54,050 bases of DNA. Origin: an uncultured Gammaproteobacteria bacterium. GTDB lineage: Bacteria > Patescibacteriota > Patescibacteriia > Patescibacteriales > WJLG01. Shown here piece after piece: positions 19,383-26,274 of this stretch (positions within the stretch are counted from its first letter, which is position 1; each line of letters starts with the position of its first letter). The notes under the pieces were generated by a model that had not been told where the DNA came from, did no database searches, and saw only the letters and a list, made by a program, of their open reading frames with translations. The stretch lies in the NCBI GenBank assembly GCA_964547855.1, contig CAZJPG010000004.1:1-54050 (forward strand), given 5' to 3'. The translations under genes were made by a program, and so were the position numbers.

Positions 19383-19398
19383 ACAGGGAGGGATCGTT

Positions 19399-19542
19399 AT
19401 GGGTAGTGTTCCTGATTGGTTGATTTTAGTTCTATTCTTTGTGGTGATGTTGGTGTCTTGTACGGCTGGTGGATGGCTTGGAATAAAATATGTCATCAAC
19501 AAAGTAATTGGTTTTATAGCTCGTTATAGCAAAAATGGTTAA
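19399..19542 (+). CDS. 47-aa membrane peptide, absent from the ORF track
   Basis: GGGAGG SD; MGSVPDWLILVLFFVVMLVSCTAGGWLGIKYVINKVIGFIARYSKNG. Confidence 0.55.
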   Translation: MGSVPDWLILVLFFVVMLVSCTAGGWLGIKYVINKVIGFIARYSKNG

Positions 19543-19561
19543 TCTTAAAGAGGCGGTGAAC

Positions 19562-19735
19562 ATGAAAAAAAGTTTTTGGTTGGTGTCAGCGCTTGTTTCG
19601 GTCGGTGCGATATTCGTTTTGGCCGGCATGACGGCTTTGGCCTTAGTTTGGCCGAGCTACAGGAGGATCTTCGCAGCCGAATTATCCGAGGCCGTGGATC
19701 GTGGACATGAGGCTGGTGCGTATCCGGTTGATTAG
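19562..19735 (+). CDS. Small single-TM hypothetical protein
   Basis: GAGGCGGTG SD-like sequence before ATG 19562; hydrophobic N-terminus. Confidence 0.55.
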   Translation: MKKSFWLVSALVSVGAIFVLAGMTALALVWPSYRRIFAAELSEAVDRGHEAGAYPVD

Positions 19736-19759
19736 GATGCGGCTGGTTAGGGGGTTGTC

Positions 19760-20035
19760 ATGATTTTGCCAAGAGTGAAACTGAAAAAGAGAGAAGGTAG
19801 CGATAGTTATTTTATAAATGACGGCAAAAGAATATCGGCTATCAATGAATCATTTCTCAGTAATTCGGATTTATCGGTGATAGGCGTAGTCAAAGAGAAT
19901 GAGAGGACTTGGTTCATTCGTAGTGATGATGTCGAGAATGGTGATGTTATTTGGGTCGAGGCGACGTTCGATGAGGTCGCCAGATACCAAGAGACCGGCA
20001 AAAAGGATTTTTTGAAAGAAGATTTACCGCTTTAA
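19760..20035 (+). CDS. Small hypothetical protein
   Basis: AGGGGG SD-like sequence; 91 aa; followed by a terminator. Confidence 0.6.
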   Translation: MILPRVKLKKREGSDSYFINDGKRISAINESFLSNSDLSVIGVVKENERTWFIRSDDVENGDVIWVEATFDEVARYQETGKKDFLKEDLPL

Positions 20036-20044
20036 TAGCGGATG

Positions 20045-20071
20045 GGCGACTGTGATAACAGCCGCTTTTTT
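20045..20071 (+). terminator. Intrinsic terminator
   Basis: gcgactgt/acagccgc hairpin followed by T6. Confidence 0.65.
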
Positions 20072-20107
20072 ATTGGGTAAAGGCAATTTTAAATGATGTT
20101 TTTTAAT

Positions 20108-20136
20108 TTGCTTTTTTGTTTTTTTTAGGTTAAAAT
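20108..20136 (+). promoter_or_regulatory. Candidate leuS promoter
   Basis: TTGCTT-17 bp-TAAAAT. Confidence 0.55.
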
Positions 20137-20171
20137 CGGAATAAGCGAATATTAAATAAAGTCTTTGATAT

Positions 20172-23060
20172 ATGGAAAGATACGATCACAAAGCCATTGA
20201 GAAAAAATGGCAAACAAAATGGGAGGAAGATGGGGTATACAAGACCGGAGAAGACCGCTCTAAGCCGAAGTATTATGTTTTGGACATGTTTCCCTATCCA
20301 TCAGGGGCTGGTTTGCATATCGGTCATGTTAAGGGTTATTCGGCGACCGACGTTCTGGCTAGGATGAAAAGAATGCAAGGCTTCAATGTTTTGCACCCGA
20401 TCGGTTGGGACGCTTTTGGTTTGCCGGCGGAGAACTATGCTTTAAAGAATAAAGTCCACCCTAAAATTCAAACAGAGGAGAATGTATCTTATTTTAAGCA
20501 ACAGCTTAAGGGTTTGGGTTTTTCTTACGATTGGGACAGAGAGATAAATACTACGGATCCGGAGTATTATAGATGGACGCAGTGGGCCTTTATTAAGATG
20601 TGGGAGAAAGGTTTGGCCTACGAGTCGTTCGAGCCGATCATTTGGTGCCCATCTTGCCAGACTGGCTTGGCTATGGAGGATTTGGAAGACGGAAAGTGCG
20701 AGCGCTGCGGCAGTGAGATCGAGCGCAAGCCAATGCGCCAGTGGGTTATAAAAATAACTCAATATGCTGATCGTTTGCTTGCCGATTTGGATAAATTACC
20801 GGGATGGGAGGAGTCGATCAAGGAGATGCAGCGCAATTGGATAGGAAAATCAGAAGGTGCGGAGATAATATTTCAAATAAAAAATAAAAAAGAAGAAACA
20901 AAGAATGAGGGGGTAAAAGTCTTTACTACGCGTCCGGACACTTTATTTGGAGTAAGCTATGTGGTTCTCGCGCCAGAACACCCGTTGATCGGCGAATTGC
21001 GGTCAGATATCGGCAACTGGGGAGAGGTTGAGGAGTACATCGAAAAGGCTAGGGCCAAGACTGATTTACAAAGGACCGATTTGAACAAAGACAAGACTGG
21101 TATGAAGCTGGATGGTGTTATGGCAATAAATCCAGTTAACGATGAAAAGGTTCCAGTATTCGTCGCTGATTATGTTTTGGCTAATTATGGCACTGGTGCG
21201 GTAATGGCCGTTCCAGCGCACGATCAGCGTGATTATGAATTCGCCCGCAAATATAGTTTGCCAATGAAGCAAGTGATCAGGCCAAAGGATTGTTCTTGGG
21301 ATGACATAAACAAGGTCTTAAAAGGATTGAAAAATATTAAATCCATAGCCGATGAGAGCGGGGTCAAGTTTTGGCTAATGGGAGGATTGGCCTGTGCTTT
21401 CCACAATGGAGTTATATATCGTCAGCATGGAGACTTGGATCTTATAGTCGAGAATGAAGTCGATCTCTCTGGATTCGGTTTAGTTTTGGAAAAGGCGGGT
21501 TTTTTGAAAAAAGGAGAAGAAGTGGACTGTGAAGACCCGAGCCGCAATCATTGTATATATAAGAACGACGAAGGATTGGAGGTCGGAGTCAGTCTTTATA
21601 AACATTTGCCTGATTTTAAGACTCCTGGCCTATCAGAGGAAAAGAAAAAATATAGTGACGTGGAAACTCTCGTGATCAGCCGTGAATATGCCGAGATTTT
21701 TAAGCAGCATCAAATAGAGAAGCGCAACCTTCCTAAAGATATTTTGGATAAGCAATATTTTGGTGGAAAGGCCTTTGAGGACGAGGGTGCTTGTGTGAAC
21801 TCTGATTTTTTAGATGGTCTACCGACGGACGAGGCTAAGAAAAAAATGACAGAATGGCTTGAGCAAAACGAAAAAGGAAAAAAGAAGGTTAATTATAAAT
21901 TGAACGATTGGGTGTTCTCCAGACAAAGATATTGGGGTGAGCCGATTCCTTTCGTGCATTGTGAAAAGTGTGGCACTGTGCCCGTTTCTGTCGACGAGTT
22001 GCCGGTTAAATTGCCGGATGTCGAGCATTATGAGCCGACCGGAACGGGGGAGTCTCCATTGGCGAATATCACGGATTGGGTTAATACGACTTGTCCTAAA
22101 TGCGGTGGAGCGGCTAAGCGCGAGACCAACACGATGCCGCAATGGGCTGGTTCTTCTTGGTATTATTTGCGTTATATGGACCCAAAGAATGATGAAGCTT
22201 TGGTCGATTTGGCCAAGGAGAAATATTGGTCGCCAATCGATTTCTATGTCGGCGGCGCCGAGCATGCCACCCGTCATCTGATCTATGCTCGTTTTTGGCA
22301 TAAGTTCTTATTTGATATTGGCGTCGTTAATTACGAAGAACCGTTCACTAAGTTGCAGCATGTCGGGCTTGTTTTAGGTACTGACGGCAGAAAGATCAGT
22401 AAGCGCTTGAACAACGGAGCCAATCCTTTGGATGTGGCGGCGGAATTCGGCGCCGACGCTTTACGCATCTATGAGAATTTCATGGGTCCATTTGGCCAGT
22501 CTTGTGCCTGGGGCAGCAATGGCCCTGTGGGTGTGCGTCGATTTTTAGATAAAGTTTGGGCGATAGCCAATAGTGGTTTTTCTCCTGAAAGCAGTAAGGA
22601 AGTTTTGAATTTGCTTCACAAGACCATTAAAAAGGTCGGTGACGATATTGCGGAGTTTAATTTGAATACGGCCGTCTCGGCTATGATGATCATGGTCAAC
22701 GCTATCGATGAGCAGGGGATTTCTAAGGAAGATTTTTCAAAGTTCATACAAATACTTTCGCCTTTTGCCCCGCATCTTTGCGAGGAGATTTGGCATGATA
22801 AATTAGGACAGCAAGATGGTGTCTTTAAGACCGAGTGGCCGAAATATGACGAAACTTTAATGAGGGACGAAGTTATAAATTTGGTAGTTCAGGTCAATGG
22901 TAAATTACGCGCCACTCTTAAAGTGTCTCCAGAGATAAACGAAGACGAGGCCAAGAAGGTCGCGTTCGAAAACGCCGATGTTAAAAAGTGGGTCGATGGC
23001 AAAGAGATTGTTAAAGTAGTTTTTGTCCCGGGCAAACTTTTGAATTTTGTAGTAAGATAG
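20172..23060 (+). CDS. leuS: Leucine--tRNA ligase with an inserted nucleotidyltransferase-like domain
   Basis: MFPYPSGAGLHIGH, FTTRPDT, AVMAVPAHDQRD (CP1), DWVFSRQRYWG, KISKR, VVQVNGKLRA; ~160-aa insertion at ~21282-21770. Confidence 0.96.
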   Translation: MERYDHKAIEKKWQTKWEEDGVYKTGEDRSKPKYYVLDMFPYPSGAGLHIGHVKGYSATDVLARMKRMQGFNVLHPIGWDAFGLPAENYALKNKVHPKIQTEENVSYFKQQLKGLGFSYDWDREINTTDPEYYRWTQWAFIKMWEKGLAYESFEPIIWCPSCQTGLAMEDLEDGKCERCGSEIERKPMRQWVIKITQYADRLLADLDKLPGWEESIKEMQRNWIGKSEGAEIIFQIKNKKEETKNEGVKVFTTRPDTLFGVSYVVLAPEHPLIGELRSDIGNWGEVEEYIEKARAKTDLQRTDLNKDKTGMKLDGVMAINPVNDEKVPVFVADYVLANYGTGAVMAVPAHDQRDYEFARKYSLPMKQVIRPKDCSWDDINKVLKGLKNIKSIADESGVKFWLMGGLACAFHNGVIYRQHGDLDLIVENEVDLSGFGLVLEKAGFLKKGEEVDCEDPSRNHCIYKNDEGLEVGVSLYKHLPDFKTPGLSEEKKKYSDVETLVISREYAEIFKQHQIEKRNLPKDILDKQYFGGKAFEDEGACVNSDFLDGLPTDEAKKKMTEWLEQNEKGKKKVNYKLNDWVFSRQRYWGEPIPFVHCEKCGTVPVSVDELPVKLPDVEHYEPTGTGESPLANITDWVNTTCPKCGGAAKRETNTMPQWAGSSWYYLRYMDPKNDEALVDLAKEKYWSPIDFYVGGAEHATRHLIYARFWHKFLFDIGVVNYEEPFTKLQHVGLVLGTDGRKISKRLNNGANPLDVAAEFGADALRIYENFMGPFGQSCAWGSNGPVGVRRFLDKVWAIANSGFSPESSKEVLNLLHKTIKKVGDDIAEFNLNTAVSAMMIMVNAIDEQGISKEDFSKFIQILSPFAPHLCEEIWHDKLGQQDGVFKTEWPKYDETLMRDEVINLVVQVNGKLRATLKVSPEINEDEAKKVAFENADVKKWVDGKEIVKVVFVPGKLLNFVVR

Positions 23061-24437: not shown

Positions 24438-25025
24438 TCAGATCGTAAAAGACTCGTAAAAATCCATTATTCTTTTTTGTGGATGTATATAATTTTTTAT
24501 GTTTTCTGGAGTTGTGAATATTTCCGGATTTTTTTTATAGATTAGAAATAATTTCAAGAAAAAAGTATGGCTTACACAAAGGATGTTGGGGTGTTTTAAT
24601 CTTAACTCTGACAATTTTTTATCTAATTTTTTGATTCTTGCAAGTAATTCATGCCTTTTCTCATTTAGATCGTCACTTATGAAAAGTTCGATAAAATTTT
24701 TTCTAATGGCTGTGCTTAAATTTTTATTATATTCCTTCTCTGTTATGGTTGGGGAGAATTTTATTTCTTGTAATAGTGTTGAGTAAATGATTTTCGGATT
24801 TTTATTGAAAGAGATATTTTTGATCGTTTCTTTCGCTCGTTTTGCGGTGGAGCTTATTATAAAATCAGCCTCACTTCTTTGTTTGTCAATGGGGATTTTT
24901 TTTACCATATCCATATCTAGTCCGGGGTCGTTTTTTCTAGAAAGAAGGAGTTTAATATTATTGAATTTGCTTAATTTGTTTTTTACAACAGGGTTATAGG
25001 GACCTATTTTCATTAAGGTAATCAT
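24438..25025 (-). CDS. Degenerate histidine-phosphatase-fold protein
   Basis: SSTAKRAKET, LQEIKF and ILCVSH match His_Phos_1 landmarks; the RHG motif is replaced by MKIG. Confidence 0.6.
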   Translation of the reverse strand: MITLMKIGPYNPVVKNKLSKFNNIKLLLSRKNDPGLDMDMVKKIPIDKQRSEADFIISSTAKRAKETIKNISFNKNPKIIYSTLLQEIKFSPTITEKEYNKNLSTAIRKNFIELFISDDLNEKRHELLARIKKLDKKLSELRLKHPNILCVSHTFFLKLFLIYKKNPEIFTTPENIKNYIHPQKRIMDFYESFTI

Positions 25026-25030
25026 GTTTT

Positions 25031-25073
25031 TAAAAATGATCGGGGGATAATTATTTCATCTCCCCCGATTCAT
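25031..25073 (-). terminator. Intrinsic terminator after the 25076..25882 gene
   Basis: atcggggga/tcccccgat stem followed by TTTTT on the minus strand. Confidence 0.7.
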
Positions 25074-25075
25074 TG

Positions 25076-25882
25076 TCAATAAAGCTCTCCCTCTATTACC
25101 CCAACCGGGAATTTGGGGTGTGGAGCTAAATAATCTGAATTTGGCACAAGACTAAAGTCAAAAAAATTTTTAATATTCAATGTCTCATGGTTTATAACTA
25201 TGAGATTTTGATTTAAAAATATTTTTCTTAATAGTGTTCCTTGTGTCATGTAAAGGCTCATGGCGTGTGCCGCTGCTTTCTTGTTTTCCTCTTCACTTAG
25301 TTCTCGTCCTCGAAACATCATGGAGAGAAGGGCTCTTTTATTCATGAAATAAGAAAACCTTATTTTAAAATCTCTGTCCGTGCCTTGTCTATCCAATATG
25401 TTTTTTTCTACGATTTCTTGAATTTGGAGATAGTCAATTCCTTTGTCTTGGTAAAAAGATGAAAAAGTTTCCACCTTAGCCAGGCCATTAATTTTTTCTT
25501 GTATGGCCTTAGCGGAATTTTCGCAGCATTCAAGATACTTTTCCCTGTTTTCGGCTACTCGACAGTAAAACTCTTCCATTCCTGATGATATTTCTGGTAG
25601 ATCCGCGACTAGTATGATCCATTTGATGTTTATTTTTCGATGACAGAGATCGTTGATTAAGCACGGAACCGAATCAATGTGGGCTTTGGCCGACAGGCTT
25701 ATCCCGCTTCCAAGTTTACCGGAAAAAGTATATTTTTCTCCGTCATTTGGGTAATCTGGACAGACATTGGATACTAAGGTTATTTCCTTATTCATCCTTT
25801 CTATTTTTTTAACTCCTTGTTTGGAAAACAGAATTTTGTTAGCCTGACCGACAGTGAAATAGTCTTTGCGATTGAGCGACAT
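25076..25882 (-). CDS. Hypothetical protein; possible class Ic aaRS/CDPS-like Rossmann domain
   Basis: AGGAGG SD; downstream of a T-box; segments VCPDY, WIILVADLPE, AKVETFSSF, SLYMTQG. Confidence 0.7.
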   Translation of the reverse strand: MSLNRKDYFTVGQANKILFSKQGVKKIERMNKEITLVSNVCPDYPNDGEKYTFSGKLGSGISLSAKAHIDSVPCLINDLCHRKINIKWIILVADLPEISSGMEEFYCRVAENREKYLECCENSAKAIQEKINGLAKVETFSSFYQDKGIDYLQIQEIVEKNILDRQGTDRDFKIRFSYFMNKRALLSMMFRGRELSEEENKKAAAHAMSLYMTQGTLLRKIFLNQNLIVINHETLNIKNFFDFSLVPNSDYLAPHPKFPVGVIEGELY

Positions 25883-25924
25883 ACGTCCTCCTTTTTTTGT
25901 TTTAAAGAACAGTGAATAAAGAAC

Positions 25925-26239
25925 AAATAAAAAACCTCCCGTCTCTTTATTGGAATATTAAAATTCCAGTAAAAGGACGGAAGGTTGTTCCGCGGTGCCA
26001 CCTTTTTTATTTTGCTAATTCGTTTTTGGCGTTTTATTTATAAAAATAATCCGCCAGTGACGGATTAACAAAATCTCTTTCACTGACTCAGTCTCGTCTT
26101 TTGAGACGACGACATCAGCTTTCCCATGATTACGGGGGAGTCCGGGCCAACACTATGTGCATTGGCCATCTCAGCATGCCCAACCCCTTGTATTTGCACA
26201 AGGGACATGCGTCAATGATTTTTGCGTTTATTAAGTACT
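25925..26239 (-). ncRNA. T-box riboswitch leader (transcriptional attenuator)
   Basis: Minus strand AAGG-UGGCACC-GCGG...CCGUCCUU antiterminator (T-box at 25990-26005) overlapping a long terminator hairpin at 25933-25986 plus U-tract; a sigma70 promoter lies upstream. Confidence 0.85.
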
Positions 26240-26245
26240 AAAGTC

Positions 26246-26274
26246 ATAATACACCTTTTTTGTTTTTTTGTCAA
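26246..26274 (-). promoter_or_regulatory. Sigma70 promoter for the T-box leader
   Basis: Minus strand TTGACA-17 bp-TATTAT. Confidence 0.8.

Follow-up and report, generated by a model that had tools for sequence, protein, structure and literature searches.

A probable tRNA-Trp T-box leader with a short Stem I upstream of a synthetase-like gene family in Patescibacteria

T-box riboswitches that act on transcription generally need a long Stem I with an elbow-binding double T-loop, and a shortened Stem I is a feature of the translational, mostly actinobacterial, T-boxes (PMC7583486). In both cited accounts of the class, the first four bases of the T-box bulge pair with the NCCA end of the tRNA (PMC7583486; PMC7778990). 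Here we describe a leader on the minus strand of contig CAZJPG010000004.1 (assembly GCA_964547855.1), which was analysed over positions 1 to 54,050, hereafter the window. The leader precedes a gene for a 268-amino-acid (268-aa) protein and is very probably a transcription-attenuating T-box riboswitch specific for tRNA-Trp.

The closest described systems are the transcriptional Trp T-boxes of Firmicutes, such as that of Streptococcus suis trpXYZ (PMC9382623; RF00230). With these the window leader has in common a UGG specifier, a UGGC bulge, Stem II, the IIA/B pseudoknot, Stem III, and an antiterminator that competes with a terminator and U-run. It differs from them in its Stem I of 37 nucleotides (nt), with a plain 5-nt bulge and no S-turn, AG bulge or double-T-loop platform, in an extra helix after IIA/B, in a hairpin and U-run inside Stem III, and in an Rfam score below the gathering cut-off. 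Its host is an ultra-small bacterium of the Patescibacteria (Candidate Phyla Radiation, CPR), and the regulated gene is no known trp gene, transporter or trpS. The actinobacterial ileS T-boxes with an intermediate or ultrashort Stem I likewise have no elbow platform, and likewise possess Stem II and the IIA/B pseudoknot, which presumably compensate (Sherwood et al. 2015, summarised in PMC7583486). These, however, act on translation by sequestering the Shine-Dalgarno sequence and have an Ile specifier, whereas the window leader has a 24-pair terminator with a U-run, a free Shine-Dalgarno sequence and a Trp specifier. One related leader, L028, resembles the ultrashort ileS T-boxes in holding its specifier in the apical loop. 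The elements that define the window leader are the following.

26246..26274, minus strand: sigma-70-type promoter, TTGACA-17-TATTAT, with 11/12 consensus matches.
25925..26224, minus strand: whole T-box leader, from the start of the Rfam match to the end of the terminator U-run.
26174..26210, minus strand: short Stem I, from the RF00230 alignment and nine related leaders.
26179..26183, minus strand: specifier bulge UUGGG, with UGG at 26182-26180 (Trp codon), then the purine G at 26179.
25973..26004, minus strand: antiterminator, made up of helix A1, the T-box bulge and helix A2, with covariation across 10 leaders.
25925..25986, minus strand: intrinsic terminator and U-run, from helix pairing, fold energy and covariation.

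A sequence-only reading of the window had proposed a canonical T-box antiterminator at 25925-26010, mutually exclusive with a long terminator, and the minus strand carries the antiterminator motif at that position. Its layout is AAGG / UGGCACC / GCGGAA-CAACC-UUCCGU / CCUU (26004-25973). Helix A1 is formed by AAGG/CCUU and helix A2 by GCGGAA/UUCCGU, opening with a G.U pair. Between them lies the 7-nt bulge UGGCACC (26000-25994), of the form UGGNACC and contained in AAAAAGGUGGCACCGCGG (26007-25990), with UGGC at 26000-25997 and C as the variable base N at 25997. The motif AGGTGGNACCGCG occurs once in the window, against 0.09 expected. The terminator has its 5′ arm at 25986-25963 and its 3′ arm at 25956-25933, and its 24 positions comprise 20 Watson-Crick pairs, 2 G.U pairs and 2 mismatches. 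The helix is followed by the U-run UUUUUUAUUU, which reaches 25925. Because the terminator and the 3′ half of the antiterminator both use 25986-25973, the two structures are mutually exclusive, and this part of the earlier proposal is borne out. Computed energies were -6.7 kcal/mol for the antiterminator and -27.0 kcal/mol for the terminator; such a balance is usual for T-boxes, whose antiterminator prevails only with the help of tRNA. A G.U first pair in A2 and purines flanking Stem III, both present here, are also found in solved T-box discriminators (PMC7583486).

Related sequences were used to examine each helix for covariation. The 268-aa protein (P0001) had only 17 relatives, with 44-51% identity, among 5.8 billion clusters, and the records of their loci are labelled as Patescibacteria (Falkowbacteria, Saccharibacteria and 'Patescibacteria group'). 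The window sequence itself also occurs in metagenomes of bioreactors, digesters and wastewater; over the leader, the DNA contigs of three metagenomes were identical to it and added no natural variation. Upstream of orthologues of the 268-aa gene there are 12 distinct T-box-like leaders, of which 10 entered the analysis of the antiterminator and terminator, nine that of Stem I, and eight that of Stem II, IIA, IIB and the extra helix. For the antiterminator, 91.8% of cells were paired, as against at most 63% with slid partners, and three of the six A2 pairs showed compensatory double changes; the first A2 pair was G.U in six leaders and A-U in four. Terminator pairing was 84.5%, as against at most 50% when slid, with compensatory changes at 12 of the 20 pairs, and none of 500 shuffles was as good.

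An Rfam scan matched RF00230 end to end, over model positions 1-219 (26224-25970, 50.8 bits), with E = 5e-10 in a 901-nt search and 3e-8 over the whole 54-kb window on both strands. This was the sole match of any Rfam family in the window. The gathering cut-off for RF00230 is 93 bits, however, so that by Rfam's own rule the leader is not a member. Since the score is below the cut-off, a default scan of the window reported nothing, and the element surfaced only at E-value thresholds. All twelve leaders fall under the same cut-off (28.5-75.2 bits). In the alignment, Stem I contributes 29 nt as against 76 in the model, and there are about 85 nt of insertions, located between IIA/B and Stem III and within Stem III; the shortfall in score arises from these two features. 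Covariance searching, which had been suggested as a check, returned a significant full-model match, though one short of the family threshold. The minimum free energy (MFE) of the leader (25925..26224) was -117.4 kcal/mol, with z = -8.97 relative to shuffles. Reading from 26300 to 25780, the order is promoter, leader of about 300 nt, Shine-Dalgarno sequence and ATG of the 268-aa open reading frame (ORF), with a 195-aa ORF further downstream. The description 'canonical' fits the antiterminator, but not the leader as a whole, which in mechanism and in every feature of the discriminator domain is a T-box, yet a structural variant.

Stem I consists of a lower helix GCAUG/CAUGC and an upper helix UCCCUUGU/ACAAGGGG with the apical loop GCAAAU. 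In its upper part the stem is a simple hairpin of 8 bp closed by a loop of 6 nt, and neither an S-turn, an AG bulge nor a distal T-loop (tRNA-elbow) platform, as expected of a long Stem I, was found in it. Across the nine leaders compared, the lower helix has 4-7 bp and covaries at every position, the upper helix has 7-9 bp, and there are no mismatches in either. The only unpaired 3′ segment of this short Stem I is a 5-nt bulge, UUGGG in eight leaders and CUGGG in one, in which UGGG is invariant. The window presents a specifier codon and following purine, U-UGG-G, flanked by covarying helices. According to the TBDB frame rule, the specifier comprises nt 2-4 from the 3′ end of the specifier bulge (PMC7778990), and in the UUGGG register this standard frame gives UGG. 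The codon also appears in leaders of other architecture: L018 has a long, canonical Stem I with specifier loop GAA-UGG-A beside helix CCAAG/CUUGG, L025 likewise has a long Stem I, here with GAAAU-UGG-G, and L028 carries UGG in its apical loop, AGAAUGGG. UGG is the sole triplet common to the specifier sites of all twelve leaders.

The codons readable in or next to the window bulge are GUU, UUG, UGG and GGG. In bacteria the tRNAs for Val and Leu carry A73 and that for Gly carries U73; among these codons, only that for Trp is known to be read by a bacterial tRNA with G73. Eleven leaders have an intact bulge. At its variable base, ten of them show C (the window, L006, L008, L013, L015, L016, L018, L025, L028 and L029) and one shows U (L011, UGGU). 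Trp tRNAs carry discriminator G73, and 46% of Trp T-boxes use U at the variable base, forming a G.U wobble (PMC7778990); the mix of C and U seen here is the pattern that TBDB gives for Trp T-boxes. UGG and UGGC are also combined in the trpX T-box of S. suis, which has been validated by experiment (PMC9382623). The sequence-only reading had taken N = C in the UGGN/NCCA pairing to imply G73. That argument follows the established mechanism of UGGN pairing (PMC7583486, PMC7778990), C being able to pair only with G73, and its list of G73 tRNAs, which included Trp, is now narrowed to Trp by the common UGG triplet and by the Trp-linked contexts of the orthologues. No tRNA was found in the window, and no tRNA-Trp in the 21 loci searched; we infer that the tRNA-Trp of this organism has G73 and that it is bound by the leader.

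The orthologues in L030, L014, L012/L021 and L024 have no T-box. In three of these loci the orthologue is preceded, in order, by trpS, a TrpR-like gene, a palindrome, a Trp-Trp leader ORF, a CCACCAA segment and a terminator.

L030, 962-2460: repressor-plus-attenuator locus.
L014, 752-2290: repressor-plus-attenuator locus.
L024, 356-1870: repressor-plus-attenuator locus.

The trpS genes of L014 and L030 match TIGR00233 with about 290 bits. The TrpR-like gene matches TIGR01321 with 44-52 bits, under the cut-off of 67, and Pfam Trp_repressor is on record for L030. The trp-operator-like palindrome contains GTACTAGTAC or ATACTAGTAT, and the short leader ORF has a tandem UGG UGG (e.g. MLATQAWWRREYFAFALVC and MSKTWWAGELIAFASLR, each followed by a stop). 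The CCACCAA segment is complementary to the tandem Trp codons and lies ahead of the terminator. The same arrangement is found from the TrpR-like gene onward in L012/L021 (2266-3001). In L031 (1-188) the contig opens inside the leader, so that the leader ORF with UGG UGG, CCACCAA and the terminator are visible and the upstream part is off the contig. L030, L014 and L024 represent a classical trp-style repressor-plus-attenuator arrangement in Patescibacteria. The TrpR-like gene, the GTACTAGTAC-type palindrome and the tandem-Trp leader ORF of these Saccharibacteria-type loci correspond to the attenuation and TrpR control of the E. coli trp operon; they are not present in the window, which uses a T-box instead.

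In L003 (4535-7359), the genes for the orthologue, its phosphatase-fold partner and a TrpRS overlap; the TrpRS matches NCBIfam PRK12285.1-4 with 529.6 bits, above cut-off. Neither a T-box nor a TrpR-like gene is found in this segment or in L009 (2380-2697); both have an ORF of about 100 aa (...STIKY..K.L...) directly upstream, which we suspect to encode a DNA-binding protein. From the T-box, TrpR-like and Trp-Trp attenuator contexts it follows that tryptophan controls this one gene family through different mechanisms in different lineages. A relation of the downstream gene to tryptophan supply would fit the co-location of its orthologues with trpS, TrpR-like genes and Trp-Trp leaders, and because these contexts are independently Trp-linked, the Trp assignment is much stronger than it would be from the RNA alone.

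Beyond the specifier and the discriminator domain, the leader contains the following elements.

26168..26173, minus strand: UGAGAU, 3′ half of a putative K-turn-like junction at the base of Stem I, from the RF00230 alignment.
26145..26167, minus strand: Stem II, GGCCAA/UUGGCC, with conserved loop UGC..UAGUG; 6/6 pairs compensatory.
26122..26144, minus strand: Stem IIA (CGG/CCG) and IIB pseudoknot, including CCGUAA; 100% of cells paired.
26083..26118, minus strand: lineage-specific extra helix, CUGAU.../...GUCAG, between IIA/B and Stem III, an insertion in the RF00230 alignment.
26009..26074, minus strand: Stem III, AUUUUGUUAAU/AUUAGCAAAAU, with flanking purines AAGAG and AA, from the RF00230 alignment and the MFE fold.
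26040..26067, minus strand: terminator- or pause-like hairpin within Stem III, UAAUCCGUC-ACU-GGCGGAUUA (26067-26047) followed by UUUUUAU (26046-26040), of 9 bp and 46 nt before UGGC.

The 5′ half of the K-turn-like junction is AUCAUUGAC (26219-26211). It aligns, together with UGAGAU, to the GA/K-turn columns of RF00230, and relatives carry an extra hairpin between Stem I and the 3′ half. The IIB pseudoknot pairs the loop UCCC (26139-26136) with GGGA (26125-26122). Three of its four pairs are compensatory (UCCC/GGGA, UCCU/AGGA, GCCC/GGGC and GUCC/GGAC), and the IIA stem is invariant. In the extra helix, the five closing pairs are 100% paired and three are compensatory. For Stem II, IIA, the IIB pseudoknot and the extra helix combined, 99.3% of cells are paired and 12 of 18 pairs compensatory. 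The MFE fold had offered a long-range helix, UCAUUGAC/GUCAGUGA, which was discarded: by eye, the matching flanks in L006 were not complementary, and across the eight aligned leaders the downstream GUCAG closes the extra helix instead. The purines around Stem III correspond to the RRRxG-stem III-AA motif described for T-boxes (PMC7583486). As every helix covaries, the whole leader, and not the antiterminator only, is a conserved structured RNA.

A hairpin with a run of 5-7 U in the Stem III region was found in 7 of the 12 leaders, 19-50 nt upstream of UGGN. Besides the window these are L001, L008, L015, L016, L025 and L029, with sequences unrelated between lineages. The element may be a pause site that would give a slow-binding tRNA time to dock; alternatively, the hairpin may act as a partial early terminator.

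A mechanism can be proposed on this basis. Transcription would start at about 26240 from TTGACA-17-TATTAT. The CCA anticodon of tRNA-Trp would pair with the specifier UGG (26182-26180) in the 5-nt bulge of the short Stem I, with Stem II and the IIA/B pseudoknot buttressing the specifier in place of an elbow-binding platform. When uncharged, the tRNA would pair through its 3′ GCCA with UGGC (26000-25997) and stabilise the weak antiterminator (-6.7 kcal/mol). The terminator (-27 kcal/mol) would then not form, and polymerase would read into the 268-aa gene and probably into that of the phosphatase-fold partner. Charged tRNA-Trp could not stabilise the antiterminator, and transcription would stop at about 25925.

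Several observations weigh against this assignment. Stem I has no elbow platform, which is called essential for transcriptional T-boxes (PMC7583486), and the score of 50.8 bits falls short of the gathering cut-off. L003 encodes a TrpRS of the archaeal-like PRK12285 type, and the discriminator of tRNA-Trp in archaea and eukaryotes is A73. None of the RNA runs searched for the locus matched it. The specifier bulge itself can be read in a second register, as either of the two flanking Gs can serve as partner for the first U of the upper helix. The slid register gives the bulge GUUGG, and the codon in standard frame is then UUG (Leu) for eight bulge-type leaders and CUG (Leu) for L029, and RNAfold often favours it, in several leaders. 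This slide between UUG/CUG and UGG is the one real ambiguity of the specifier assignment. Finally, leaders of this type can decay, as one relative has lost the 5′ half of its T-box. The leader in question, L001 3360-3620 (= L007), keeps the UUGGG Stem I, Stem II, IIA/B and the terminator, without the AAGGUGGCACCGCG half of the T-box, and from its sequence would be a decayed or rearranged switch.

The last point belongs to a broader alternative, by which the window leader is itself decaying or independent of tRNA, its terminator being constitutive or under another factor and its T-box resemblance vestigial. The sub-threshold score, the missing elbow platform, the loss in L001/L007 and the presence of a second terminator-like hairpin upstream would all be consistent with such a leader. 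The helices, pseudoknot, specifier and UGGC bulge, however, are kept with compensatory changes across lineages whose proteins are only about 45-50% identical, and the G.U sensor pair and purine strings are intact. We consider a vestigial leader unlikely.

A Leu-specific T-box is very unlikely. It would use the slid bulge GUUGG in frame UUG, the register that RNAfold favours for several leaders and in which all nine bulge-type leaders show a Leu codon, and leuS lies nearby at 20172-23060. Against this, UGGC cannot pair with the A73 of bacterial tRNA-Leu. The leaders of L018 (AUG/UGG/GGA) and L028 (AUG/UGG/GGG) contain no Leu codon in any frame, and the orthologues occur with trpS, TrpR-like genes and Trp-Trp leaders but in no case with Leu genes. 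The window leuS is on the plus strand, beyond an MFS gene, as a separate unit without a T-box. These results effectively exclude Leu, and the argument against it in the sequence-only reading, made in spite of the neighbouring leuS, was sound. Upstream of the 962-aa leuS is a gap of about 790 nt without long ORFs (19383-20171). It matched no Rfam family at E ≤ 0.05, and leuS is accordingly without a recognisable T-box; nor was any T-box other than the minus-strand leader found by Rfam on either strand of the window.

A switch for a different G73 tRNA, that of Gln or Asn, with CAA or AAU of the apical loop GCAAAU as specifier in the manner of ultrashort actinobacterial T-boxes, is also very unlikely: short-Stem-I T-boxes can hold the specifier there (PMC7583486) and both tRNAs were on the earlier G73 list, but the apical loops of the nine bulge-type leaders (GCAAAU, UUUAUC, UACUAU, CUAG, UUAU, AAAUUG, UUCGG, AUU and AAUUC) have no common triplet, while the bulge UGGG is invariant, and an apical-loop specifier was rejected.

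The genes that the leader would control are the following.

25076..25894, minus strand: Shine-Dalgarno sequence AAAGGAGG (25894-25887) and the 268-aa gene, with ATG at 25882 and ORF 25882-25076.
24438..25025, minus strand: 195-aa histidine-phosphatase-fold partner, adjacent to the 268-aa gene.

The Shine-Dalgarno sequence is about 30 nt past the U-run, outside the switch. The 268-aa protein has no Pfam, NCBIfam or PDB sequence match. Its AlphaFold model, from an 18-sequence alignment, has a pLDDT (predicted local distance difference test) of 94 and a pTM (predicted template modelling score) of 0.91. Foldseek searches of the PDB with this model returned TyrRS (6hb6, E 6e-5), many cyclodipeptide synthases (CDPSs; TM, or template modelling score, ~0.5), the isonitrile synthase PIsnA and archaeal TrpRS. 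The model thus has a predicted fold of the class-Ic aminoacyl-tRNA synthetase (aaRS) or CDPS type. Like the CDPSs and class-Ic aaRS cores it is Rossmann-type, and like the CDPSs it has no HIGH or KMSKS, the class I aaRS signatures being found in 0 of 18 family members. It differs from both in having no family match and no anticodon-binding domain, in its own set of motifs (invariant VCPDY and HGMSLY.THGTLLR), and in always being paired with a histidine-phosphatase-fold protein without RHG. As no CDPS sequence family was matched in Pfam, NCBIfam or PDB, the likeness is at the level of the fold only. A profile search gave 236 remote relatives of P0001 of 240-410 aa, seven of them at E ≤ 1e-30, and none of the ten checked has a Pfam domain. 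This suggests an undescribed superfamily with a class-Ic synthetase/CDPS-like fold.

Wherever a locus extends far enough downstream, the 268-aa gene is followed by that of the 195-aa partner. In 9/9 orthologues of this partner (the window copy and those of eight other loci), the catalytic RHG is missing, with K[TI]G or some comparable non-RHG sequence in its place, and the later SHTFF motif is kept (SHSF in L031). The absence of RHG is a family-wide trait rather than a defect of the window copy. Co-transcription of the two genes is inferred from their conserved adjacency only. A promoter-like site, TTGACA-18-AATAAT with a TG extension (25050-25079, minus strand), overlaps the stop codon of the 268-aa gene; as it stands just before the 195-aa gene, that gene may have its own promoter.

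The sequence-only reading had expected the switch to narrow the substrate of the 268-aa enzyme. The ligand is now narrowed to tRNA-Trp, but a ligand reveals the shortage that induces, and does not by itself identify the substrate. Since a T-box induces on uncharged tRNA, the two proteins would be expected to contribute to the supply of tryptophan or charged tRNA-Trp, and not to consume Trp-tRNA as a classical CDPS does. A more far-reaching proposal unites both aspects. The leader would represent a transcriptional T-box class without an elbow platform, compensated by Stem II/IIAB contacts and a programmed Stem III pause, and the protein would be a stripped TyrRS/TrpRS-like, CDPS-like enzyme acting directly on tRNA-Trp or Trp-tRNA. 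We regard this joint proposal as speculative and rather improbable. If it were true, riboswitch ligand and enzyme substrate would be the same tRNA, as, for example, in a route free of ATP motifs that draws on a scavenged Trp donor to secure charged tRNA-Trp.

These bacteria evidently make wider use of T-boxes. A second T-box, divergent from the Trp leader, stands upstream of aspS in L008 (2364-2537, minus strand) and L015 (2404-2598, minus strand). The bulge of this T-box reads UGGC in L008 and UGGU in L015, and either sequence fits the G73 of tRNA-Asp, and AspRS scores 817 bits in L008. A second GGGTTGGG in L016 was considered as a tandem T-box and ruled out, as it sits within a coding region. 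A full-text literature search found, within the collection searched, no paper linking T-boxes with CPR/Patescibacteria. Because these leaders score under the Rfam threshold, standard annotation misses this T-box family.

The window leader would be a natural terminating T-box without the elbow platform thought necessary for kinetically controlled T-boxes, and the recurrent pause-like hairpin in Stem III may explain how termination-type switching is achieved without it. Patescibacteria have a minimal metabolism and depend on obligatory scavenging of amino acids. For one of their operons, of undescribed function, a ligand (tRNA-Trp) and a signal (tryptophan shortage) can now be assigned with high probability. 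Three unrelated Trp-sensing devices, the T-box, the TrpR-like repressor and the Trp-Trp attenuator, converge on this one gene family, and their convergence makes a tryptophan-related role of the synthetase-like enzyme directly testable.

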